Assembly (NCBI GenBank): GCA_035279405.1 | Contig: DATEHU010000034.1 | Location: 192,175-256,174 of the forward strand | Source of the DNA: Gammaproteobacteria bacterium | Lineage (GTDB): Bacteria; Pseudomonadota; Gammaproteobacteria; Natronospirales; REEB76 | DNA: 64,000 nucleotides | Reading direction: 5' to 3' | Shown here: positions 7,005 to 22,792 of the stretch, one piece after another | Numbering within the stretch: the stretch's first letter is position 1 | How the letters are laid out: each line of letters begins with the position of its first letter | Notes under the pieces: model-generated | Databases searched by the model: none | Told to the model about the DNA's origin: nothing | What the model saw: only the letters and a program-made list of their open reading frames with translations | Position numbers and translations under genes: made by a program

Positions 7005-8366
7005 ATGCCATTCAGCGTCGTCATCCTGGCCGCGGGTCAGGGCAAGCGCATGCATTCCGACCTGCCCAAGGTATTGCAGCCTCTGGGCGGCCGCACGTTA
7101 TTGGAACACGTGGTAGCCACCGCAGCCTTGCTCAAGCCGGACGCGATGTATGTGGTGTACGGTCACGGCGGCGAGCAGGTCCAAGAAGCGCTCAAACATC
7201 TCGACGTGCGTTGGGTGAGCCAGGCAGAACAGCTCGGCACCGGACATGCCGTGCTGCAAGCGCTGCCGCAGATCCCCGACGAACACCGGGTGCTGGTGTT
7301 GTACGGCGACGTCCCACTGCTGCGTGTGACGACGCTGCAGAAGTTGCTCGCCGCCGCGACGCGCGGCGAGCTTGCGATTCTTACTGCGAACCTTTCCGAC
7401 CCGACCGGATATGGCCGGATCGTGCGCGACGCCGAAGGCCAGGTGGCACGGGTGGTGGAACAGAAAGACGCCAGCGCGGCGGAACTGCGCATCGCCGAAG
7501 TCAGCACCGGCCCGCTGGCGTGCCAGGCCGGGTCGCTGCGTCGCTGGCTGAAGAGTCTCGGCAACGACAACGCCCAGAAGGAATACTATCTGCCGGACGT
7601 GGTGCCGGCCGCCATGGGGGAGGGAGTTTTGGTGACAGCCATCACGGTAGCCGATGAATCCGAGGTCGCGGGCGTCAATGACCGCGCACAGCTCGCCGCC
7701 GCCGAACGCGCACTGCGTCGCGTGCGCGCCGCGGACCTCATGCAGCGCGGCGCAATTCTGCGCGACCCCGAGCGCATCGACGTGCGCGGTGAACTCGAGT
7801 GCGGTCGCGACGTGGTGATTGACATCAACTGCATATTCGAAGGCCGGGTGAAACTCGGCCACCGCGTGCGTATCGGCCCGAACGTGCTGGTCCGCGATTG
7901 CGAACTCGGCGACGATACCGAGGTGTACGCCAACAGCGTGCTGGAGGGCGCGAGCATCGGTGCACGTGTGCGCATCGGCCCGTTTGCACGCCTGCGGCCG
8001 GGCGCCGCGCTCGCCGAAGAAGTGCACATTGGCAATTTTGTCGAGGTCAAGAACAGCCAACTGGGTGCGGGCACCAAGGCTAATCATTTGGCGTATCTCG
8101 GCGACGCCGAAATCGGCCGGCAGGTGAACGTCGGCGCCGGCACCATCACCTGCAATTACGATGGAGTGAACAAACACCGCACGGTGATCGGTGACGACGC
8201 ATTCATCGGCTCCAATACCTCGCTGGTGGCGCCGGTGACTGTGGGTGCGGGCGCCACCATCGGCGCCGGCTCGGTGATTTCAAAGGAAGCGCCGGCAGGC
8301 GAGCTTACCCTGGAGCGCGCACAGCAGAAGACTGTGACGGGATGGAAACGGCCACAGAGGAAATGA
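7005..8366 (+). CDS. glmU: Bifunctional UDP-N-acetylglucosamine diphosphorylase / glucosamine-1-phosphate N-acetyltransferase
   Basis: N-terminal LAAGQGKRM nucleotidyltransferase motif and C-terminal left-handed beta-helix hexapeptide repeats, positioned after atpC. Confidence 0.95.
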   Translation: MPFSVVILAAGQGKRMHSDLPKVLQPLGGRTLLEHVVATAALLKPDAMYVVYGHGGEQVQEALKHLDVRWVSQAEQLGTGHAVLQALPQIPDEHRVLVLYGDVPLLRVTTLQKLLAAATRGELAILTANLSDPTGYGRIVRDAEGQVARVVEQKDASAAELRIAEVSTGPLACQAGSLRRWLKSLGNDNAQKEYYLPDVVPAAMGEGVLVTAITVADESEVAGVNDRAQLAAAERALRRVRAADLMQRGAILRDPERIDVRGELECGRDVVIDINCIFEGRVKLGHRVRIGPNVLVRDCELGDDTEVYANSVLEGASIGARVRIGPFARLRPGAALAEEVHIGNFVEVKNSQLGAGTKANHLAYLGDAEIGRQVNVGAGTITCNYDGVNKHRTVIGDDAFIGSNTSLVAPVTVGAGATIGAGSVISKEAPAGELTLERAQQKTVTGWKRPQRK

Positions 8367-8523: not shown

Positions 8524-10350
8524 ATGTGCGGAATCGTAGGAGCAGTCGCCGGGCGTGACGTGGTGCCGCTGCTGGTCGAGGGCCTGCAGCGGCTCGAATA
8601 CCGCGGCTACGACTCGGCGGGCGTGGCAGTGCTGAACGGCGGCATCCGGCGGATACGCACCGTGGGCCGGGTGGCGGAGCTGCGCGGCAAGGCCAAAACC
8701 GAACGCCTGCAGGGTTTCATCGGCATCGGCCATACGCGCTGGGCCACGCATGGTGGCGTCACCGAAGCCAACGCGCATCCGCACGTGTCGCGCGACGAGC
8801 TCGCGGTGGTGCACAACGGCATCATCGAGAATCACGAGCAGCAGCGTGCGCGTCTGCAGAAACTCGGCTATGAATTCGAATCCCAGACCGACACCGAAGT
8901 CATCGCCCACCTGATTCACTATCACTTTTCGCAGAGCCATGACCTGTTTGCCGCGCTGCAAAAGGCAGTGCATGAGCTGATCGGCGCGTATGCCATCGGC
9001 GCAGTCGCGCTCAAGGCTCCCGAAGTCATGGTGTGCGCGCGCATGGGTTGCCCGCTACTCATCGGCCTGGGCAAGGGCGAGAACTTCATCGCTTCGGATG
9101 TTTCCGCGGTGCTCGCCGCCACGCGCCGGGTGATTTATCTCGAAGACGGCGACGTCGCTGAGCTGCGCCGCGAGCGCGTCCGCATCGTAGACCGCGACGG
9201 CCGGGCGGTCGAGCGCAAGGTGCACGAAAGTGATGTATCGCTGGCCTCGATGGAACTCGGGCCTTATCAACATTTCATGCAGAAGGAAATCCACGAGCAG
9301 CCGCACGCGCTCACGGATACGCTGGAGAGCACGATTTCGGAAGGCTTCACGCCGGCGCTGTTCGGCAAACAGGCGGCGGCGGTGTTCAAGGATGTGGATG
9401 CGGTGCAAGTCCTCGCGGCCGGCACCAGCTATTATGCCGGCCTGACCGCCAAGTACTGGATTGAGAGCTTCGCCAAGCTGCCGGTCGGCGTGGAGATCGC
9501 CAGCGAATACCGCTACCGCGATTCCGTGGCCGACCCGCGTCAGTTGATCATCACCATTTCGCAGTCCGGGGAGACGCTCGATACGCTCGAAGCGCTCAAG
9601 CACGCGAAAAAGCTGGGCCAGGCCAAGACCCTGTCCATCTGCAACGTGCAGGAAAGCGCCATTCCGCGCGCCTCGGAACTGGTGTTCCATACCCGCGCCG
9701 GCGCGGAAATCGGCGTGGCTTCGACCAAGGCGTTCACCACGCAGCTCGCCGCGCTGTTCGTGCTCGCGGTGACGCTCGCCCGTGTGCGTGGCTTGTTGGA
9801 TGAGCAGAAACTCGCCGTCTACATGGAAAGCCTGCGGCATCTGCCCGGCAGCGTGCAGCATGCGCTCAATCTGGAGCCGCAAATTGCCGAATGGTCAAAG
9901 CGCTTCGCACCCAAACAGCACGCGCTGTTCCTGGGGCGCGGCATTCACTACCCGATCGCGCTCGAAGGCGCGCTCAAGCTCAAGGAAATCTCCTATATCC
10001 ACGCCGAAGCCTATCCCGCCGGCGAGCTGAAACATGGCCCGCTGGCGCTCGTGGACAAGGACATGCCGGTAGTGGTGATTGCGCCTAATGACGCGCTGCT
10101 GGAAAAACTGAAATCCAACATGCAGGAAGTGCGCGCCCGCGGCGGAGAGCTGTTCGTGTTTGCCGATGCGGACAGCCATTTCGCCGAGAGCAACTTGGTG
10201 CACGTGATCCGCACGCCGCGCCACGCCGGCATTCTCTCGCCCATCGTACACGCCATCCCGGTGCAACTCCTTGCCTACCACACCGCCCTCGCGCGTGGCA
10301 CGGATGTGGACAAACCGCGCAATCTGGCTAAATCTGTGACTGTTGAATAG
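8524..10350 (+). CDS. glmS: Glutamine--fructose-6-phosphate aminotransferase
   Basis: MCGIVG N-terminal nucleophile Cys, two SIS domains, and the C-terminus [12 protein letters not shown]. Confidence 0.98.
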
Positions 10351-10450
10351 TTTAATGTTATCGCCCGAGACGCGTTGCTATATGTACGACAACACGAATC
10401 TCTGGATGATTTCATTCAGCCTGTAGCTATTGGCCTTTAGAAATTCAGCA

Positions 10451-11014
10451 ATGAGTGAAAATGACAAAAAACCTCTCGAATTGACCGCGCTTTACAAGCG
10501 TCACTCCGGTCTCACACGCGCAATTAGTGACACCTTTTACGAAGCCGTATCAATTTGCCTCAGCCGGCACCACGTTTCTCCTGTTGATATGAGGATAGAA
10601 TGTGATAAAAGGGCGACTAAGAGGACGGCAGAATTTGCAACCCCGACCGTTAGAACACTCAATGCGTGGGCAAACAATATAGATACTACAGAAAGTGGCG
10701 CCTATGGTGTTTGTCTTGCTGCGATAGAAGTTGAGGAAGATATGATTGCCGTAAGGCGTGCAGAAACACTAACGGGTGCAGATTGGTATGTTGCTCCGAT
10801 GGGCACGCGAGCAGATGATTTGGAACGATGCCTGCGCTTGGAGGTATCAGGTGTTGACGGTGGAACTCAGTCTACATTGAAAACGCGTCTTAGACAGAAA
10901 GTCGAACAAACGAAGCGCGGTGTGAGCAACATTCCGGCAATTGCTAGCGTAGTGGGGTTCAAGGAAAAAACCATAATGATTCAGACTGTAGAAAGAAGCG
11001 ATGACATGGCTTGA
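10451..11014 (+). CDS. Hypothetical protein, islet ORF1 (possible PD-(D/E)xK-like fold)
   Basis: Long ORF in the low-GC islet. The first ATG is at 10451 (the ORF track uses TTG at 10430). Its stop overlaps the ORF2 start by 14 nt. I recognise no family; the motif pattern E..D(GADWYV)..E-V-S(LEVSG) is only suggestive. Confidence 0.7.
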   Translation: MSENDKKPLELTALYKRHSGLTRAISDTFYEAVSICLSRHHVSPVDMRIECDKRATKRTAEFATPTVRTLNAWANNIDTTESGAYGVCLAAIEVEEDMIAVRRAETLTGADWYVAPMGTRADDLERCLRLEVSGVDGGTQSTLKTRLRQKVEQTKRGVSNIPAIASVVGFKEKTIMIQTVERSDDMA

Positions 11015-12110
11015 TTATCATGCAGCCAGCGAAAAACTGGCGAGTGAGGCTCAGTCAGCCCAGCTAGAAAGAAATATCAAGCGGGCACGCGAGTTGTACC
11101 GTGCTGCTGCGCAGGCCGAACGTAGGGCGCTTGATGAAGTTGACGTATCGAAGGCAAGAACTAGGGGCGTAACCGCTGTAAGTGCCGTGGCCCTATGGTT
11201 TAAAGCATTCGAATTCGTTGAGGCTGAGCGCCTTGCGTATTCGCTCTTGGCCGATCCGGACATTCCTAATTTTGCGCGTGGCGAATTGAGAACCCTAGTG
11301 CAAGCTATATGGACAGAGGCTTCAAAACAAGAAGCCAATGTAGACTTTGTGCCGGGACAAGTGCTTGTTTCAGTTAAGGGTGGTGAAGTCATTACTGGTG
11401 GTGCACCGCTAGATTTGATCGTTGACAAAGTTCAGACGATTCAATCAATGTTCTATAGAACAATAGAGTTTCTTAATGGAGCGGCACACCGAAGGACGGG
11501 CCGTCCGACAAAAGAAATACAAGAAGCATGCAGGCCGTGGCTTTTCCAGTCAGCTCCTGGAAGTTATCAGTTTGCTGTAGCAATTCAGAAGCCGCTACAG
11601 TCTGACTTTTTCCGAGAAAACGTTCAACCTGAACAAATTGCCCGCCACTTCCTGGATATTGTTGACGCTTCTTCTCAACAGGACACAACGGAATTGAAAA
11701 GGCTTGTGGGAGATGACAGTTACAGGAGCACGTTCTTAAAACTTGCACGAAATCTTGCACCCACGGGCAGGTCATTTGAGAGGATTGAGCTGAAAATACC
11801 TGGGGATCCTCATCGAGTAAGTCTTGGAGCTGATTCTCGTGGGAATATTAACCAGCAATTACATCAAATGGTCGAGCCTCAGGTAAGCTCAAGCGAAGAA
11901 CTAACCGAGTTGCACGGTATTTTGCGTGCTGTACATTTGGACAAAGACTGGATCGAAATACATGTCGAAAGCGGGTTTATACATGTGGATAATCTTCGGG
12001 ACGCTGTCGACGATGTGATTGGGCCCATGGTGAATCGCTCCGTTGTGATTCAAGCGGTTCACACAGCAAGTAACAAGTATAAGTTTGTGGATATTGAATT
12101 AGCCGACTAG
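11001..12110 (+). CDS. Hypothetical protein, islet ORF2 (N-terminal helical repeat region, unknown C-terminal domain)
   Basis: 369-aa ORF whose ATG at 11001 overlaps the end of ORF1. I recognise no family. Confidence 0.75.
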   Translation: MTWLDYHAASEKLASEAQSAQLERNIKRARELYRAAAQAERRALDEVDVSKARTRGVTAVSAVALWFKAFEFVEAERLAYSLLADPDIPNFARGELRTLVQAIWTEASKQEANVDFVPGQVLVSVKGGEVITGGAPLDLIVDKVQTIQSMFYRTIEFLNGAAHRRTGRPTKEIQEACRPWLFQSAPGSYQFAVAIQKPLQSDFFRENVQPEQIARHFLDIVDASSQQDTTELKRLVGDDSYRSTFLKLARNLAPTGRSFERIELKIPGDPHRVSLGADSRGNINQQLHQMVEPQVSSSEELTELHGILRAVHLDKDWIEIHVESGFIHVDNLRDAVDDVIGPMVNRSVVIQAVHTASNKYKFVDIELAD

Positions 12111-12180
12111 GAATACTTCCACTCCACGCAGTCGGTGGATTTGTAAATCCTGTGCCGGGCTGTTGTGGATCTCAATAAAG

Positions 12181-12272
12181 AGCAACGCTGCACCACCTGT
12201 GCGCGGAGCTTTTCCACCAGTTCTGGATTGGCGAGGGTGGTGATCTCGTTTGCGTCACGGCCGCTGGAGAGC
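12181..12272 (-). pseudogene. Fragment homologous to the 3-prime end of acetyl-CoA synthetase
   Basis: Ungapped alignment to 20759-20846 at about 75% nt identity (hand count 66/88). The minus-strand translation LSSGRDANEITTLANPELVEKLRAQVVQR matches the intact Acs C-terminus LSAGRDPGDITTLANPEVVEKIRAQVAQH. The stop is lost and the rest of the gene is absent. Confidence 0.75.
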
Positions 12273-12429
12273 TAAGTGAATCGTGGCGCTCGCGCCGATC
12301 TGAAACTTGTCGATGTCATTTGACAATCATGACAGTGAACTCGAATTCAGCTCTCAATGCAGATTCAGGAATACTTACAGTTCGTGATGATATAACTGCG
12401 AGCGAGCTGCATGTGGTTTGGCGCAACCA

Positions 12430-12524
12430 ATGAAACTCTTGGCCTCATCGGCGGCATGAGTTGGGAGTCCACCGCCCATTACTACACGCGTATTAACCAG
12501 TTGGTGACGGAGCGCCGCCTTTAG
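12430..12524 (+). pseudogene. Frameshifted 5-prime fragment of an Asp/Glu racemase gene
   Basis: About 85% nt identity (hand count 74/87) to the start of the intact racemase gene at 19870. A 1-nt deletion after the ATG breaks the frame. The corrected frame reads TLGLIGGMSWESTAHYYTRINQLVTERRL then a stop. Confidence 0.78.
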
Positions 12525-12542
12525 AGCGCCGCGAGCATACGG

Positions 12543-14885
12543 TCAATAAGCCCTCATCGAATAAGGCCGGCTGGCAGGCGAGGTCGCCCAAGTTTTGTTC
12601 GGCGTCGCCTGCATTACAAAGCGCAGCACACCGCCTGACATGATTTCGTCCTCGCGGATATAGCTGCGGTTCAACGGTTTGCCGTTCATACTGACCGCGC
12701 CCACGTAGGGGTGCGCGTCGTCCAAGTTGTCGGCTATGACGGTAAATTGCCGACCGTTCGGCAGGTGCAGCGTGGCGCGCCGTACGAACGGCCGGCCGAT
12801 CACGTATTCGTTGCTGGCGGGTGCGACGGGATAGAAACCCAAGGCGGTGAAGATGTACCACGCCGACATCTGCCCCAAGTCGTCGTTGCCGACCAGGCCC
12901 GTCGGTGTCGGTGCGTACTGGCTGTTCATGATTTGCGCGAGACGCTGCTGGGTTTTCCACGGCTCGCCCGCGTAATCGTACAGGTACGCAATGTGATGGC
13001 TGGGTTCGTTGCCGTGCGCATACCAGCCGATGAGCCCGGTCACGTCCTCGAGTTTGGCAAAGACCTTGGGATTGATTTTGGCGTCGAACACCTGATCCAG
13101 CTTGGAGACCAGTCCGGCGTCACCACCGAGTTCATGAATCAGACCGCCGATATCCTGCGGTTCGTACCACGAGTACTGCCACGAATTACCTTCAGTGAAA
13201 CCGCTGCCCGCACCGGCGGCGGCGGGATCGAAGGGTTCGCGGAATTTCCCATTCGCAAGCCGGGGCTGCGCGAAGCCGGTCTTCGGATTGAACACGTTGC
13301 GCCAGTTTTCGGCGCGCTTGAAAAACTTCGCCGCTATTTTCTTGTGGCCCATGGCTTGCGCCATCCGCGCCAGTGTCCAGTCGTCGAAGGCGTATTCCAG
13401 TGTCTTGGAAACCGACTCGGGTTCGCGGTCGCTGGGCACGTAACCGAATTTCATGTAGTCGCCGAGATCGCCGTACGGCGCATAGGTGGCGCTCGCGATC
13501 ATTGCCTGCAACGCGGCATTCGCGTCGAAGCCGCGGAAACCCTGCATGTAGAAGTTGGCGATCACCGGTACCGCGTGGTAGCCGATCATGCACCAGGTTT
13601 CCAGGCCCTCGTAGGCCCACACCGGCAGGATGCCGAACGGGCTTTCCTGTTGTGCCGCGATCAGCGAGTCCGCAAAATCGTTGATGCGCTGTGGCGGCTG
13701 CAGGAACGCCATTAAAGGCATTTCCGCGCGATACACATCCCACAGCGACCAGCTCGAATAGAAGGTAAATCCTTTGGCGGTATGCACCGCGTGATCTGGG
13801 CCCCGGTATTCGCCGTTCACGTCCATCGAGACATTGGGCGAGATCAGCGCGTGGTACATCGCGGTGTAGAAACTCTTCTCGATGTCCGGCGGCGCCTCCA
13901 CGTCAATCGCCGAAAGCGCCTTTATCCATGCCGCCCGCGCCTCGGCGCGGCGTGCGTCGAAGTCCCAGCCTTGGCCGTCGGCATCGAGGTTCGCGATCGC
14001 GTTGGCTGCGCTGACGGTGGAAATCGCCACCTTTACCAGCAGCGGACTCGTGAGTTTGCCGAACTCGAACGCGCCTTCGAGCTGTTTGCCTGCAATCGCA
14101 TCCACACCCGTCGGGTCGGGCGCCGGCCCTTTGAAACCCTGGTACACGATATTTTGTTCGCGATTCACCAGTTCGTGGGACTTGAGCGGTTGTGAGAAGC
14201 GGATCGCAAAATACAATTGCCGCCCCGGCGCCCAGCCACGCGTTTCGCGGTAGCCGGTGACGGTGCCATCGGCGCGCACCCGCAGCCGCGCCCACAGCAC
14301 CTTGCCGGGGTAATCGTAGATACTCGGGCGCAGGTCCAGCAGTACGTGTGCGGTTTGGTCTTTCGGGAAGGTGTAACGATGCCAGCCGACGCGCCGGCCG
14401 GCGGTAAGTTCCACGCGTACGCCGCTGGTCGCGAGCGTCACCGCGTAGTAACCGGGTTGCGCGGTCTCGGTCCTGTGGCTGAAATCCGCACGGTAGCCGC
14501 TGCCCGGCTTGTCCGGGTTACCCGGGTCCCATTCAATCTTGCCCACGCCCGGCATCAACAGCACGTCACCGAGATCGGAATGGCCGCTGCCGGAAAAATG
14601 CGTTTCGGAAAAACCGAGGATGCTGTGATCGCCGTATTGATAACCTGCCGCCCATGCATAAGCGTGCTTGAAATCGGGCATCGCGGTATCGGGACTCAAC
14701 TGGATCATCCCGAAGGGCACCGTGGCGCCGGGGAAGGTGTGGCCGCCGCCACCAGTGCCGATGAATGGATTTACGGAATCATAGGCCTGGCTGGCAGCGG
14801 ACGCGGCGTAGGCCGGGAGCGTGACGGCGGCCAGCAGGATCACGACTCCGAAGCATGAAGTGGCGTGAAAAATGCGCGTGCGCAT
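12543..14885 (-). CDS. GH92 family alpha-mannosidase (secreted)
   Basis: NPFIGTGGGGHTFPGATVPFGMIQLSPDT signature, signal peptide MRTRIFHATSCFGVVILLAAVTLPAYA, and GAAGAGGA upstream of the ATG at 14885. The ORF-track extension to 15095 is rejected. Confidence 0.92.
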   Translation of the reverse strand: MRTRIFHATSCFGVVILLAAVTLPAYAASAASQAYDSVNPFIGTGGGGHTFPGATVPFGMIQLSPDTAMPDFKHAYAWAAGYQYGDHSILGFSETHFSGSGHSDLGDVLLMPGVGKIEWDPGNPDKPGSGYRADFSHRTETAQPGYYAVTLATSGVRVELTAGRRVGWHRYTFPKDQTAHVLLDLRPSIYDYPGKVLWARLRVRADGTVTGYRETRGWAPGRQLYFAIRFSQPLKSHELVNREQNIVYQGFKGPAPDPTGVDAIAGKQLEGAFEFGKLTSPLLVKVAISTVSAANAIANLDADGQGWDFDARRAEARAAWIKALSAIDVEAPPDIEKSFYTAMYHALISPNVSMDVNGEYRGPDHAVHTAKGFTFYSSWSLWDVYRAEMPLMAFLQPPQRINDFADSLIAAQQESPFGILPVWAYEGLETWCMIGYHAVPVIANFYMQGFRGFDANAALQAMIASATYAPYGDLGDYMKFGYVPSDREPESVSKTLEYAFDDWTLARMAQAMGHKKIAAKFFKRAENWRNVFNPKTGFAQPRLANGKFREPFDPAAAGAGSGFTEGNSWQYSWYEPQDIGGLIHELGGDAGLVSKLDQVFDAKINPKVFAKLEDVTGLIGWYAHGNEPSHHIAYLYDYAGEPWKTQQRLAQIMNSQYAPTPTGLVGNDDLGQMSAWYIFTALGFYPVAPASNEYVIGRPFVRRATLHLPNGRQFTVIADNLDDAHPYVGAVSMNGKPLNRSYIREDEIMSGGVLRFVMQATPNKTWATSPASRPYSMRAY

Positions 14886-18475: not shown

Positions 18476-19873
18476 ATGCGCCTTTCTGTGAAAATTTTGC
18501 TCCCGATCATCGCGCTACTGCTGCACTGTGCAGGCGTCGCGCAGACGCCGCCCGCCACGACCATGAGCAACGCAGAAGCGCGGCGCATGGCAGCGCGCGT
18601 TAAGGCGGAGTTTCTGCACGCCTGGTACGGCTACAAGCGTTATGCCTGGGGACATGATGCACTGCGGCCCTTGAGCAAGCGGCCGTTCGACTGGTATGGG
18701 CCCGGGCAGTCATTGCTGATGACACCAGTGGATGCGCTGGACACGCTGGTGCTCATGGGCCTGAAAAAGCAGGCCGCCGAGGATCGCGCGTTGATTGATA
18801 CCAAACTAGATTTCAACAAGGACATCTACGTCAAGGTGTTTGAAGTCAACATCCGCCTGCTGGGCGGGCTGCTGTCGGGCTACGAGCTGACCGGGGACCG
18901 GCGATTGCTGGCGTTGGCGGACGACCTCGGCACCCACCTGCTGCCGGCGTTCAATTCGCCGACCGGACTGCCGTACCGCTACGTGAACCTGCGCACCGGC
19001 GCGGTGCGCGGCGTGGACTCCAATCCCGCGGAAACCGGCACGCTGCTCCTGGAATTCGGCACGCTCAGCAAACTCACCGGTAATCCGGTGTTCTATGCCA
19101 AAGCCAAGCGCGCACTGGTGGAAACCTTCAAGCGCCGCTCGCCCATCGGGCTGGTGGGCGACGGCATCAACGTGGAAACCGGCCAGTGGACCGATGACGA
19201 TTCGCACATCAGCGGCGGCATTGATTCGTATTACGAATACCAGCTCAAATGCTGGAAGCTGTTTGGCGATGAAGACTGTCAGCGCATGTGGCTGACCAGC
19301 ATCGCCGCCGTGGACAAGTACCTGGCCGACGAACGCGACAGCGAGCTATGGTACGGCCATGCAAACATGTACACCGGCAAGCGCACCGCCACGGAATACG
19401 GCGCGCTGGATGCCTATTTCCCCGCGGAACTGGTGCTGTCAGGCGATCTTGTTCAAGCCCGGCGCTTGCAAGCTTCGTCTTTCAGGATGTGGAACCTCTA
19501 CAGCATCGAGCCCGATACACTGAATTACCGCACCATGCAAATCGTGGATCCGGAATATCCACTGCGCCCGGAAATCGTCGAATCCACCTATTATCTGTAC
19601 CACTACACCCGCGATCCTTATTACCGCCTCATGGGTAAACGCATGTTCGACGAGTTCGTGAAATACTGCCGCACGAATGACGGCTATGCCGCGCTCGCCA
19701 GCGTCATCACCAAGCAGAAAACCGACGCCATGGAAAGCTATGTATTCGCGGAGACTTTCAAGTATTTCTACCTGCTGTTTGCGCCGCCGCAAACGCTGGA
19801 TTTCAACCGCGTGATTTTCAATACCGAAGGCCACTCGCTGCGGCGCGATCCGCAACCCGTGCCTCAATCATGA
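18476..19873 (+). CDS. GH47 family class I alpha-1,2-mannosidase (secreted)
   Basis: AWGHDALRPLS and VFEVNIRLLGGLLSGYELTGD motifs, with signal peptide MRLSVKILLPIIALLLHCAGVAQ. The ORF track starts at GTG 18455. Confidence 0.87.
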   Translation: MRLSVKILLPIIALLLHCAGVAQTPPATTMSNAEARRMAARVKAEFLHAWYGYKRYAWGHDALRPLSKRPFDWYGPGQSLLMTPVDALDTLVLMGLKKQAAEDRALIDTKLDFNKDIYVKVFEVNIRLLGGLLSGYELTGDRRLLALADDLGTHLLPAFNSPTGLPYRYVNLRTGAVRGVDSNPAETGTLLLEFGTLSKLTGNPVFYAKAKRALVETFKRRSPIGLVGDGINVETGQWTDDDSHISGGIDSYYEYQLKCWKLFGDEDCQRMWLTSIAAVDKYLADERDSELWYGHANMYTGKRTATEYGALDAYFPAELVLSGDLVQARRLQASSFRMWNLYSIEPDTLNYRTMQIVDPEYPLRPEIVESTYYLYHYTRDPYYRLMGKRMFDEFVKYCRTNDGYAALASVITKQKTDAMESYVFAETFKYFYLLFAPPQTLDFNRVIFNTEGHSLRRDPQPVPQS

Positions 19874-20562
19874 AGACGCTCGCCCTCATCGGCGGCATGA
19901 GCTGGGAATCCACAGCGCATTACTACGCGCGCATCAACCAGTTGGTGGCGGAGCGCCTGGGTGGATTGCATTCAGCGCGGCTGCTGCTCTACAGCCTCGA
20001 TTTCGACGTATTGCAGCGCCTGCAGCATGCCGATGACTGGGCCGGCGCGGCCCGTCTGCTGGTGGATGCAGCCAAACGCCTGGAGCGCGCCGGCGCCGAA
20101 GGGTTGGTAATCTGCGCCAACACCATGCATCTCGTGGCGCCCGAGATCGAAACCGTTGTGAAATTGCCGCTCATTCACGTAGCCGATGGCACGGCCAAGG
20201 CGGTCAAGGATCGGGGCATCCGCACCGTAGCTTTACTCGGCACCCGTTTCACCATGGAGAAGGATTTTTACCAGCTGCGCCTGGAGCAGCACGGCTTGCG
20301 TGTGCTGATTCCGGATACCGATGACCGCGAGGTGCTGCATCGCATGATTTACGCGGAGCTGTGCAAGGGCGTGGTACGGAAGGAATCGCGCCAGGCGTTC
20401 TTCGGCGTAATCCGCCGTCTTGCGGCGGCGGGCGCCGAAGGCGCCATTCTCGGCTGTACCGAGTTCACGCTGTTCGGCGGTTCGCCCGGCGCAGGCATCC
20501 CGCTGTTCGATACCACCGAGATTCACGCGCGCGCGGCGGTGGACTGGGCTTTGAGTGCTTGA
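19870..20562 (+). CDS. Aspartate/glutamate racemase family protein
   Basis: The N-terminus MKTLALIGGMSWESTAHYY and the later ILGCTEF motif are typical of the family. ATGA overlap with the GH47 stop. Confidence 0.88.
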   Translation: MKTLALIGGMSWESTAHYYARINQLVAERLGGLHSARLLLYSLDFDVLQRLQHADDWAGAARLLVDAAKRLERAGAEGLVICANTMHLVAPEIETVVKLPLIHVADGTAKAVKDRGIRTVALLGTRFTMEKDFYQLRLEQHGLRVLIPDTDDREVLHRMIYAELCKGVVRKESRQAFFGVIRRLAAAGAEGAILGCTEFTLFGGSPGAGIPLFDTTEIHARAAVDWALSA

Positions 20563-20755: not shown

Positions 20756-22792
20756 TCAGTGCTGTGCCACTTGAGCGCGGATTTTCTCCACCACTTCCGG
20801 ATTGGCGAGCGTGGTGATGTCGCCGGGGTCGCGGCCCGCCGAGAGCGCGGCGAGTACCCGGCGCATGATTTTTCCGGAACGCGTCTTGGGCATGTCGGGC
20901 ACAATCCACACGCGCCGCGGCCGGGCGATGGACCCGATTTCGGTCTCGATGGCTTTTGACACACGCTGCGCCATCGCATCGTTCGCGGCCGCGCCAGGTC
21001 TAAGTGACACATAGATTTCCGGTACACGACCTTTGACTTCGTCCGGCACCGGCACCACGGCGGCTTCGGCAACTTCCGCCACGGTCATGGCGGCGGATTC
21101 GATTTCCTTGGTGCCCAGGCGATGGCCGGCGACGTTGATCACGTCGTCAATGCGACCGAGCACCCGGTAATAACCGTCCGCGGCCTGGACTGCACCATCG
21201 CCCGGGAAATACGGCCAGTCCTCCCAGTTCTTGCTTTTCTTGTTTTTGCAGTAGCGCTCGAAATAGGTCTTCACGTAGCGATCCGGATCGCCCCAGATGG
21301 TCTGCATCAATCCCGGCCAGGGATTGCGGATGCAGAGATTGCCGGCGCGGCCGGTGCCCGGCGGAATCTCCGCGCCGTTGTCGTCGTAAATCACCGGATG
21401 CACGCCGGGCAGCGCGGGGCCGGCGCTACCGGCTTTCATGGCGCCAAGCGCGGGCAATGTCGAGATCAAATGCCCTCCGGTTTCGGTCTGCCACCAGGTG
21501 TCCACCACTGCCGCCTTGCCCTTGCCGACGACGTTGTAATACCAGCGCCAGCTTTCCGGCTCGATGGGCTCGCCCACGGTGCACATGAGTTTGAAATGGT
21601 GATTGTATTTCTTCGGTTCGTCCGGGCCCTCGCGACGCAGTGCGCGCACCGCGGTGGGCGAGGTGTGAAAGATATTGACGCCCAGTTGTTCAGCGATGCG
21701 CCACGGCCGGCCGGCGTCCGGGTAATTGGGCACGCCTTCGTACATGACCGACGAGGCGCCAAGCGCCAGCGGTCCGTACACGATGTAGGAATGGCCGGTG
21801 ATCCAGCCGATGTCGGCCATGCACCAGTACACGTCCTCGGGTTTCACATCCAGCACGTCCTTCGCGGTGCCGGTGCACCAGGCGAGATAGCCGCCGATCG
21901 CGTGCAGACAGCCCTTGGGCTTGCCGGTGGTGCCGCTCGAATACATGATGAACAGGCCGTCGGTGGCAGCGAGGCGCTCGGGCGCGACGCGCTGGCGCCG
22001 GTACTTCACCAGCACTTCGTTGACCGCGTGGTCACGGCCCGCGACCATCGGCGTCGCGGCCGAGTGTTTGCCGGGGTGGCGCTGCCACACCAGCACCTGG
22101 TCCACCTTCTGGCCTTGCTTCTGCGCGTCGCTGACCGCGATGTCGGCCTTCTCCTTGTGGTCCAGCAGCTTGCCGGCACGGTAATAGGCATCCATGGTGA
22201 TGAGCACGCGGCTCTGGGAATCCACGATGCGGTCGGCGCAGGCTTTGCCGGAAAAGCCGCTGAATACCTGCGAGTGGATCACGCCCAGACGCGCGCAGGC
22301 GAGCATGGTGATCACGGCTTCCACCGCCATTGGCATGTGCAACGTGACACGGTCGCCGCGCTTCAAATGGGAGAAATCGCGCAGCAGCGCGGCGAATTCG
22401 TTCACCCGCACCCACAGGTCCTGGTAGGTGATTGCGGCGATCGGTTCGCCCTCGGCGTCCGGCACGAAATACAGCGCCGCCTTGTTGCGGCGTTTCGCGA
22501 GGTGCCGGTCCACGCAGTTGTAGCAGGCGTTGAGTTCCCCGCCCACGAACCATTTCCAGAACGGCGCCTGCGAGCCGTCGAAGGTATGCGTCCAGTAACG
22601 GTCCCAGGAAAGCAGATCGGCGTAAGCACGGTAGCATTCGGGAAAGTTCTTCAGCGCCATGCGCTCGAACACTACCGGATCGGTCATGTTGGCCTGGCCG
22701 ATGAATTCCACCGGCGGCGGAATCAGCGGTTCCTCGCGCCAGTGGACCGCGATTTCGGCCTCGGAGAATTCGGTTTTCACATTGACAGCCAT
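20756..22792 (-). CDS. acs: Acetate--CoA ligase (AMP-forming acetyl-CoA synthetase family)
   Basis: YSSGTTGKPKG AMP-binding motif, WWQTETGG, and a C-terminal SGKIMRR motif. Start taken at MAVNVKTEF (the ORF track starts 6 codons upstream). Confidence 0.92.
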   Translation of the reverse strand: MAVNVKTEFSEAEIAVHWREEPLIPPPVEFIGQANMTDPVVFERMALKNFPECYRAYADLLSWDRYWTHTFDGSQAPFWKWFVGGELNACYNCVDRHLAKRRNKAALYFVPDAEGEPIAAITYQDLWVRVNEFAALLRDFSHLKRGDRVTLHMPMAVEAVITMLACARLGVIHSQVFSGFSGKACADRIVDSQSRVLITMDAYYRAGKLLDHKEKADIAVSDAQKQGQKVDQVLVWQRHPGKHSAATPMVAGRDHAVNEVLVKYRRQRVAPERLAATDGLFIMYSSGTTGKPKGCLHAIGGYLAWCTGTAKDVLDVKPEDVYWCMADIGWITGHSYIVYGPLALGASSVMYEGVPNYPDAGRPWRIAEQLGVNIFHTSPTAVRALRREGPDEPKKYNHHFKLMCTVGEPIEPESWRWYYNVVGKGKAAVVDTWWQTETGGHLISTLPALGAMKAGSAGPALPGVHPVIYDDNGAEIPPGTGRAGNLCIRNPWPGLMQTIWGDPDRYVKTYFERYCKNKKSKNWEDWPYFPGDGAVQAADGYYRVLGRIDDVINVAGHRLGTKEIESAAMTVAEVAEAAVVPVPDEVKGRVPEIYVSLRPGAAANDAMAQRVSKAIETEIGSIARPRRVWIVPDMPKTRSGKIMRRVLAALSAGRDPGDITTLANPEVVEKIRAQVAQH

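Follow-up and report, generated by a model that had tools for sequence, protein, structure and literature searches.

We describe here a pair of overlapping open reading frames (ORFs), ORF1 and ORF2, that directly follows glmS in a 64,000-nt stretch of gammaproteobacterial DNA (assembly GCA_035279405.1, contig DATEHU010000034.1, positions 192,175 to 256,174 of the forward strand; hereafter the window). The pair is autonomous, foreign and mobile cargo, and none of the membership tests run places it in a described family. Genes of the window are arranged in the order atp operon, glmU, glmS, cassette, GH92, MFS, PfkB, epimerase, GH47, Asp/Glu racemase and acs, and the features around the cassette are listed in Table 1. 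A previous reading of the same DNA (the original prediction) had described a low-G+C islet whose two coupled genes could be the orphaned cargo of a Tn7-like element or CRISPR-associated transposon (CAST), possibly with a defense or toxin role. The ORF coordinates and the overlap given there were confirmed. The claimed shift in guanine-plus-cytosine (G+C) content was likewise borne out by a computed profile in 300-nt windows, with values of 0.45–0.51 over 10350–12150 vs. 0.60–0.69 in glmU, glmS and GH92, and intermediate values (0.51–0.53) in 12150–12600; overall, the cassette has a G+C content of 0.477 vs. 0.617 for the remainder of the window.

Judging from the reading frames, the overlap of ORF1 and ORF2 suggests translational coupling. 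Neither a sigma-70-like site nor a terminator was found in the leader, and homologous cassettes show no conservation of it. Since the gap between glmS and ORF1 lacks a terminator, read-through expression from glmS is plausible, and the window cassette is probably transcribed in this way. No tRNA was detected in positions 1–30000, no Rfam family in the region, and no transposase or integrase in the Pfam-annotated gene list within 10 kb of the cassette.

Table 1. Features of the glmS region, in positions of the window.
Feature	Positions	Strand	Description
glmU	7005–8366		Included in the G+C and gene-order analysis of the window
glmS	8524–10350	+	608-aa ORF with GATase and SIS domains; intact host gene, left boundary of the insertion hotspot
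Leader	10351–10450	+	100 nt from the glmS stop to the ORF1 start
ORF1	10451–11014	+	187 aa; alternative TTG start at 10430; predicted PD-(D/E)xK-like, putative nuclease effector
ORF2	11001–12110	+	369 aa; three predicted domains; putative sensor/regulator partner
ORF1/ORF2 overlap	11001–11014	+	14 nt; ORF2 ATG at 11001, ORF1 TGA at 11012–11014
acs 3′-end copy	12187–12262	not assigned	79% identical to 20761–20836; read as a target-duplication scar
Racemase 5′-end copy	12430–12516	+	86% identical to 19870–19957 (Asp/Glu racemase); read as a target-duplication scar
GH92	from 12543	−	Right-hand neighbor of the cassette

A widespread family of paired genes

Homology searches placed both genes in large families of uniform architecture. 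At least 2,005 homologues of ORF2 and 827 of ORF1 were found, of matching length and all labeled "hypothetical"; an exhaustive profile search for ORF2 recovered 1,949 representatives of clusters at 50% identity, of which 303 had E ≤ 1e-30. The full-length ORF2 representatives listed are ~370 aa long, and none of 150 carried an extra fused domain. The most divergent ORF2 branch was found to have no Pfam-annotated relatives, and a literature search on public accessions of family members retrieved no paper. In a scan of one genome per species, 79 loci were spread over 12 or more phyla, as assigned by record title. Carriers include Alpha-, Beta- and Gammaproteobacteria, Nitrospirota, Nitrospinota, Acidobacteriota, Actinomycetota and Chloroflexota, as well as Spirochaetota, Thermotogota, Verrucomicrobiota, Myxococcota, Desulfobacterota-type lineages and Binatia, in a patchy distribution at 45–68% identity. 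One 605-aa protein (P0419), from an 85-kb metagenome contig of the Joint Genome Institute (JGI), has the appearance of an ORF1-ORF2 fusion, with an ORF1-like part at residues 69–241 (E = 4e-31).

The two genes travel together. In 77 of 81 loci, ORF1 is the gene immediately upstream of ORF2, and the remaining cases are contig ends or truncated copies, so that the co-occurrence check proposed with the original prediction came out in its favor. All-against-all clustering of neighbors identified ORF1 and ORF2 as the sole genes common to most loci, and their positions were never syntenic beyond close relatives. In 39 of 53 loci, the stop codon of ORF1 and the start codon of ORF2 share the 4 nt ATGA. 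The ORF1 of the window ends in SDDMA, and its longer overlap places the two frames in a relation unlike that of most homologues; the closest relative of the window locus has a 181-aa ORF1 and a 4-nt gap before ORF2. The cassette had a lower G+C content than its flanks in 39 of 53 loci and in no case exceeded them by more than 0.03. The ratio of nonsynonymous to synonymous substitution rates (dN/dS) was ~0.1–0.2 for both genes in unsaturated pairs (0.09–0.2 for ORF1), and 0.08–0.09 between the window and locus L083 (homologous loci are cited by L numbers), from which we conclude that these are real genes under purifying selection. In ~10% of loci, one gene or both are frameshifted or truncated. 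The pair genes of L031, L035, L037, L075, L077, L078, L080, and L081 are split or truncated and appear to be pseudogenes. Such pseudogenized copies indicate that loss of the cassette is tolerated in some hosts.

Predicted structures of ORF1 and ORF2

The AlphaFold2 model of ORF1 (pLDDT, a per-residue confidence measure, 89.5) has an N-terminal helix and hairpin, followed by the alpha-beta-beta-beta-alpha-beta arrangement that characterizes the PD-(D/E)xK core fold (helix 76–96, strands 98–103, 112–116 and 128–135, helix 140–156, strand 163–169). The top Foldseek matches of the model, none of them significant, are nearly all proteins with the restriction-endonuclease fold, namely CinB, tRNA-splicing endonucleases, the SPARDA nuclease domain, MGME1, Cas4 SSO0001, Hjc, and DpnI. 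When 43 divergent ORF1 homologues were aligned, the polar residues H18, H41, N75, E93, R103, D111, E131, S133, and Q153 were invariant, and R17, H40, D78, R129, R146, and K150 were nearly so. In the model, the core helix ends with E93, D111 stands before strand 2, and strand 3 contains E131-V-S133. From this arrangement we infer that ORF1 may be a divergent PD-(D/E)xK-type nuclease; no significant sequence or structure match placed it in that superfamily. ORF1 matched neither HamA/DUF1837 nor any other PADLOC model. Kinship with the C-terminal endonuclease domain of Res or with the N-terminal domain of the UvrD-like protein, both of them frequent neighbors of the pair, was also considered and rejected, as profile-profile comparison found no similarity.

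ORF2 was modeled with lower confidence (pLDDT 76.6; predicted template modeling score 0.55) and is divided into a TPR-like helical N-terminal domain (~1–112), a middle alpha/beta domain (~113–299) and a C-terminal OB-fold-like barrel (~300–367). The loops of the middle domain are very conserved, yet of low model confidence. Foldseek searches of the PDB returned TPR proteins and OB-folds (CusF, CcmE, Ten1, RPA, CspA) at a probability of ~1 but with E-values of 0.05–0.2, and a match to HamB (8vxy_B) that was not significant (E = 0.13). Among predicted viral structures (BFVD), ORF2 matched a DUF6575 protein of 370 aa that is encoded on a viral contig (E = 6e-7, 287 columns, probability 1.0), an alignment with 12% identity and a template modeling (TM) score of only 0.30; the second significant match was an uncharacterized 270-aa protein (E = 1e-5). 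The Pfam model of DUF6575 did not match ORF2 (E ≤ 1), nor did any precomputed Pfam match occur in the homologues. The link to DUF6575 is consequently a lead provided by structural similarity alone and does not amount to membership. DUF6575 is a domain in one of 21 anti-phage systems validated in E. coli (Vassallo et al., 2022; PMC9519451). No P-loop or helicase motifs and no DNA-binding domain were recognized in ORF2.

The Type III Res-Mod-UvrD frame as a cargo slot

The genomic surroundings of the pair are diverse. Within two genes of it we found a Type III MTase, ResIII, a UvrD/NERD-like helicase, DRT UG5, TmtA, mad2, PbeA, a Type IV REase, DarT, and Fic, together with other types of restriction-modification (RM) genes and with many housekeeping genes, in a raw list of neighbors. 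The family is rare in IMG/VR, with three loci; in one, the pair lies between a tail gene and an integrase, the integrase-proximal slot of a prophage, and in another it adjoins a CI-like repressor and a nuclease. At one further locus it is part of an island with integrase, TrfA, resolvase, and ParB genes. In Burkholderia pseudomallei (L180–L183), a divergent pair (31% identity) is flanked on one side by TniQ, TniB and a 518-aa protein without a Pfam match and, on the other, by ResIII/DEAD, UvrD, and 2,140-aa DEAD+MZB helicases. This pair is common in the species, since its protein is listed in 63 collection blocks.

The most telling context is a frame composed of a ResIII helicase (~1,020 aa), a Type III methyltransferase (Mod, ~930 aa; PADLOC MTase_III, E = 0) and a UvrD-like protein (~690 aa). 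Among PADLOC models, the latter matches only NERD+UvrD and GajB, with none named Hma in the list. Nine distinct loci, and four more that are partial, carry the pair between the Mod and UvrD-like genes, with hosts in Nitrospira, Nitrospinota, Dokdonella, Burkholderiales, a metagenome-assembled genome of the Deltaproteobacteria and several metagenomic contigs. The Mod stop precedes ORF1 by 12–60 nt, and the ORF2 stop lies −4 to +70 nt from the UvrD start, so the embedded unit is essentially two ORFs with no conserved leader. That taxonomically distant hosts share this position, with UvrD closely spaced to the pair or overlapping it, could mean that ORF1 and ORF2 are integral subunits of a five-gene Res-Mod-ORF1-ORF2-UvrD system, of which the window copy would be a remnant without partners. 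This model was rejected on the basis of frames sampled through the UvrD protein. When 80 metagenomic loci were chosen by the frame UvrD protein alone, 63 Mod-UvrD junctions could be measured: 20 were empty, with Mod and UvrD 6–21 nt apart, one had an 88-nt spacer, 41 held 0.4–5 kb of other co-directional genes, and a single one held the pair, which is therefore missing from 62 of 63 independently sampled junctions. Moreover, ~85% of pair-bearing loci have no Res-Mod-UvrD frame, no RM gene is found near the window pair or its 80%-identical relative, both of which are intact, and at L008 (see below) the pair is seen to arrive as an insertion. Thus, we regard a five-gene system as very improbable.

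Cargo of the sampled junctions includes HEC-01 (E = 3e-199), AriA-like ATPases, IetS subtilases with AAA partners, Menshen NsnB, and mad3, as well as HamA with helicases, GmrSD, HipA-like kinases, Fic, and PDC-M07, PDC-M25, and PDC-M38. Because the junctions are empty or variously filled, we conclude that the frame is autonomous, that its Mod-UvrD junction is a hotspot for defense cargo, and that ORF1-ORF2 is one of several alternative cargos. Where the pair is present, it can be accompanied in the slot by a reverse transcriptase (L096), a 594-aa protein with an SMC-like ATPase (L098) or a DRT UG5-nitrilase (L002). Payne et al. used embedding of this kind as a guide to new systems, and seven of nine tested candidates protected against phage (Payne et al., 2024; bioRxiv 10.1101/2024.01.29.577857). 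The pair has the properties of such candidates, being co-directional with and nested within a multi-gene defense system, mostly solo elsewhere, and neither a mobility nor a housekeeping gene. Their survey mined Hma, BREX and DISARM frames as well as those of Type I RM, not Type III RM frames, and the resulting HEC and PDC candidates were added to PADLOC (Payne et al., 2024).

Insertion with long target duplications

On entering a locus, the cassette leaves long target duplications, and it carries no recombinase of its own. The clearest case is L008, where a 91-nt segment from the 3′ end of Mod lies 72 nt upstream of ORF1 and is repeated 27 nt after ORF2. This segment is single-copy in the pair-free frames L120, L130, and L100, where it aligns to both of the L008 copies, and L008 can therefore be read as an L120-type locus that received a 1,755-nt insert with a 91-nt target duplication. 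Repeats of this kind also bracket the pair at L032, where 103 nt (98% identical) correspond to the upstream gene's 3′ end, at L080, where 116 nt correspond to the downstream gene's 5′ end, and at L025 (263 nt). Type I–IV RM gene complexes, in which G+C content is likewise low and mobility genes are missing, are documented to insert with long target duplication (Furuta et al., 2010; PMC2853133). L008 has the features by which these authors recognized such events, namely an insert below 20 kb, a repeat above 30 bp that is single-copy in the uninserted locus, and no other mobile element. The scars in Mod-UvrD frames are also compatible with recombination through conserved flanks. Short mosaics of UvrD 5′ and Mod 3′ sequence were observed between successive cargos (L096, 9111–9243; L098, 9111–9175) and just after ORF2 in L002 and L006, and look like recombination scars at the Mod-UvrD junction. 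A 78-aa ORF downstream of the pair in Acidithiobacillus is a truncated 5′ fragment of UvrD.

No long repeat brackets the window cassette itself, but its surroundings bear marks of the same process. In the closest relatives (L082–L087; 80% amino-acid identity), the cassette is intact between the same flanks as in the window. Within positions 1–751 of L082, a BrnT-family toxin-antitoxin pair (90 aa + 79 aa) sits directly after the glmS stop; behind it, the last 148 nt of glmS (44 codons) recur as a second copy, and the ORF1-ORF2 cassette comes next. Since the BrnT pair was inserted with this 148-nt duplication, the 3′ end of glmS is a true insertion hotspot, as the original prediction had proposed. 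The "graveyard of gene fragments" that it saw on the right flank is not composed of decayed genes; there are two short copies, of 76 nt and 88 nt, of the ends of the intact acs and racemase genes, which lie 7–8 kb downstream. The acs copy is not present in L082–L087, with which homology resumes at 12433, and the racemase copy also gives a weak Asp_Glu_race match. The inner repeat pair (racemase 5′ end) brackets a 7.4-kb glycan cluster (GH92-MFS-PfkB-epimerase-GH47), which suggests that the GH92-to-GH47 cluster and the racemase gene were themselves acquired by nested insertions with long target duplication.

The age of the window insertion was inferred from comparison with the L082 lineage. Independent acquisition of the two cassettes was considered, as nucleotide identity is 76% in the cassette vs. 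84–91% in the flanks, and was dropped because the fraction of identical codons is comparable (0.52–0.55 vs. 0.59 for GH92). Synonymous divergence (dS) of the cassette between the window and the L082 lineage is 1.5–1.8 vs. 1.06, values that are near saturation. The simplest reading is an old insertion that has been kept intact in at least two related lineages.

These data also bear on the possibility that the cassette is orphaned cargo of a Tn7-like element or CAST at the attTn7 site downstream of glmS, with tns genes and ends subsequently lost. The position of the cassette immediately 3′ of glmS is what such an origin would predict, and the family adjoins TniQ/TniB with defense-type helicases in B. 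pseudomallei, which makes Tn7 carriage plausible for the family in general. At the window locus, the absence of tns genes, integrase, tRNA, and transposon ends noted in the original prediction was borne out by our scans: no tns, tniQ or integrase genes lie within 10 kb of the cassette, and 10200–12700 holds only short repeats at chance level, a scan that degenerate ends could escape. Tn7 makes a 5-bp target duplication. The duplications at the glmS hotspot, on the other hand, measure 76–148 nt (76–263 nt when other loci are included), adjacency to glmS is confined to the window's own lineage (L082–L087, L091–L093) among loci selected by the pair, and the cassette has been in place since the split of the window and L082 lineages. 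We therefore consider an orphaned Tn7-like origin unlikely. Of the earlier proposal, the foreign, co-translated and undescribed nature of the cargo stands, whereas the Tn7/CAST route is not supported at the window locus.

Discussion

That ORF1-ORF2 is a foreign, coupled and undescribed accessory module of defense or toxin type is well supported by context. A more specific reading, which we favor at somewhat better than even confidence, is that the pair constitutes a mobile two-gene conflict or defense cassette, in which a divergent PD-(D/E)xK-like effector is joined to a TPR/OB, DUF6575-like partner, function being deduced from genomic context. Defense is favored because the pair is nested in a defense-cargo slot alongside known systems with which it is interchangeable. 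Under this reading, ORF1 would be a small metal-dependent nuclease of PD-(D/E)xK type, with a predicted active site of E93, D111, E131 and the helix residues K150/Q153. ORF2 would bind ORF1 in a fixed stoichiometry, its TPR-like and OB-fold domains keeping ORF1 inactive or directing it, and could release or activate ORF1 upon sensing a protein or nucleic acid of a phage or plasmid. As a presumed outcome, nucleic acid of the invader or the host would be cleaved.

Several observations weigh against this reading. Scans of ORF1 and ORF2 against Pfam, NCBIfam, PADLOC-DB v2.0.0 (E ≤ 1) and PHROGs gave no credible family, in keeping with the failure of the original prediction to assign either protein, and no match emerged when all PDB sequences were searched with profiles of the two families. 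The best Foldseek match of ORF1 in the PDB reached only E = 0.03. Its layout is E…D…(D/E)xK with the motif lysine replaced by the invariant S133, although in the model K150 and Q153 on the following helix may act as substitutes. By tblastn of ORF2, the family was not found in 72,556 plasmids or 50,697 phage genomes, and the neighbors at most pair loci are housekeeping genes. Finally, P0419 was rejected as a Rosetta-stone fusion; a frameshift or assembly error is likelier, since its ORF1-like part loses similarity at the C-terminus.

The main competing explanation is a purely selfish addiction module of toxin-antitoxin type, in which a toxic nuclease and its neutralizer would act by post-segregational killing with no anti-phage role. 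Two small overlapping genes with conserved coupling, the nuclease-like fold of ORF1, and solo copies among housekeeping genes are all consistent with such a module, and the same glmS hotspot took up a BrnT toxin-antitoxin pair. In addition, long-target-duplication insertion is known for RM systems, which act as addiction modules (Furuta et al., 2010; PMC2853133), and PD-T4-10, an unannotated overlapping pair, was shown to be a toxin-antitoxin system (Vassallo et al., 2022; PMC9519451). Conversely, neither protein matches a toxin or antitoxin family, ORF2 is large, three-domained and thus atypical for an antitoxin, with no recognized DNA-binding domain, and the broken copies in ~10% of loci show that loss is tolerated. 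Toxin-antitoxin and defense roles are also not mutually exclusive, as PD-T4-10 has both. On balance, a purely selfish module seems improbable, if less so than the other rivals considered here.

A role outside genetic conflict might also be envisaged, for example a nuclease of DNA repair or recombination with a single-strand-binding partner, spread by ordinary gene transfer. The OB-fold of ORF2 and the nuclease-like fold of ORF1, which resembles resolvase or RecB-type enzymes, would suit this role, as would the many housekeeping neighbors. It fits poorly with the patchy occurrence at 45–68% identity over 12 or more phyla, the consistently foreign G+C content, the lack of synteny outside close relatives, the embedding in a defense-cargo slot and mobile-element contexts, and the frequent pseudogenization, and we judge it even less probable than an origin from Tn7.

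Returning to the defense reading, the pair can be compared with several known systems. Like the HEC and PDC embedded candidates, it is a co-directional cassette nested in an operon of helicase, methylase or ATPase type and is common outside such operons too, and HEC-01, PDC-M07, PDC-M25, and PDC-M38 share its Mod-UvrD slot; neither of its proteins, however, matches any HEC or PDC model (PADLOC-DB v2.0.0). With mobile RM gene complexes (PMC2853133) it shares a small, low-G+C, putatively nuclease-encoding insert without mobility genes, and direct repeats of tens to hundreds of nucleotides that are single-copy when uninserted and often overlap the 3′ end of the upstream gene. In contrast to these complexes, neither ORF matches a methyltransferase, and since the two-ORF unit has none, the pair is not an RM system. 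Hachiman (HamA-HamB) likewise has a small PD-(D/E)xK-like protein first, a larger partner second and overlapping ORFs, and HamA cassettes also occupy the Mod-UvrD slot, but ORF2 is without P-loop or helicase motifs and ORF1 without a HamA/DUF1837 match. PD-T4-10 resembles the pair as two overlapping ORFs without predicted function (Vassallo et al., 2022; PMC9519451), and the DUF6575 protein matched by ORF2 is of similar length (370 aa) and predicted structure but of low sequence identity.

A bolder proposal, which we put forward tentatively and with clearly less confidence than the defense reading, is that ORF1-ORF2 is an undescribed and widespread anti-phage or anti-plasmid system, combining a new PD-(D/E)xK branch with a DUF6575-like TPR/OB sensor, whose nuclease might in addition promote insertion of the promoterless cassette, with long target duplication, at the 3′ ends of genes such as glmS and Type III mod. 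The pair would then be a selfish defense cassette that moves without a recombinase. The before-and-after insertion with its 91-nt duplication and the nested duplications at the glmS hotspot provide material on recombinase-free movement of small defense cassettes. If the pair is a defense system, it adds a compact 1.7-kb family, present in 12 or more phyla and composed of two protein families that are unannotated anywhere. Candidate defense pairs are now numerous; ORF1-ORF2 stands out as widespread and wholly unannotated, with a clean record of embedding and mobility. Several culturable carriers are available, namely Acidithiobacillus ferrivorans (WP_051984636 and WP_035190157), Polaromonas eurypsychrophila CGMCC 1.15322, Paraburkholderia bryophila LMG 23644, Uliginosibacterium gangwonense DSM 18521, and B. 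pseudomallei or its close relatives.

The Type III Res-Mod-UvrD frame, whose junction may be empty or hold either known systems or unknown cassettes, represents a clean natural assay for cargo exchange. Two other fillings of the junction look like uncharacterized cargos. One is a recurrent cassette of ~255 + 182 + 140 aa in L100, L103, L120, and L130; L115 and L008 contain similar ORFs, and neither PADLOC nor Pfam matched the first protein of the cassette in L100. The other is a single gene of ~202 aa that fills a junction gap of ~610 nt in L119, L126, L136, L177, and L178.

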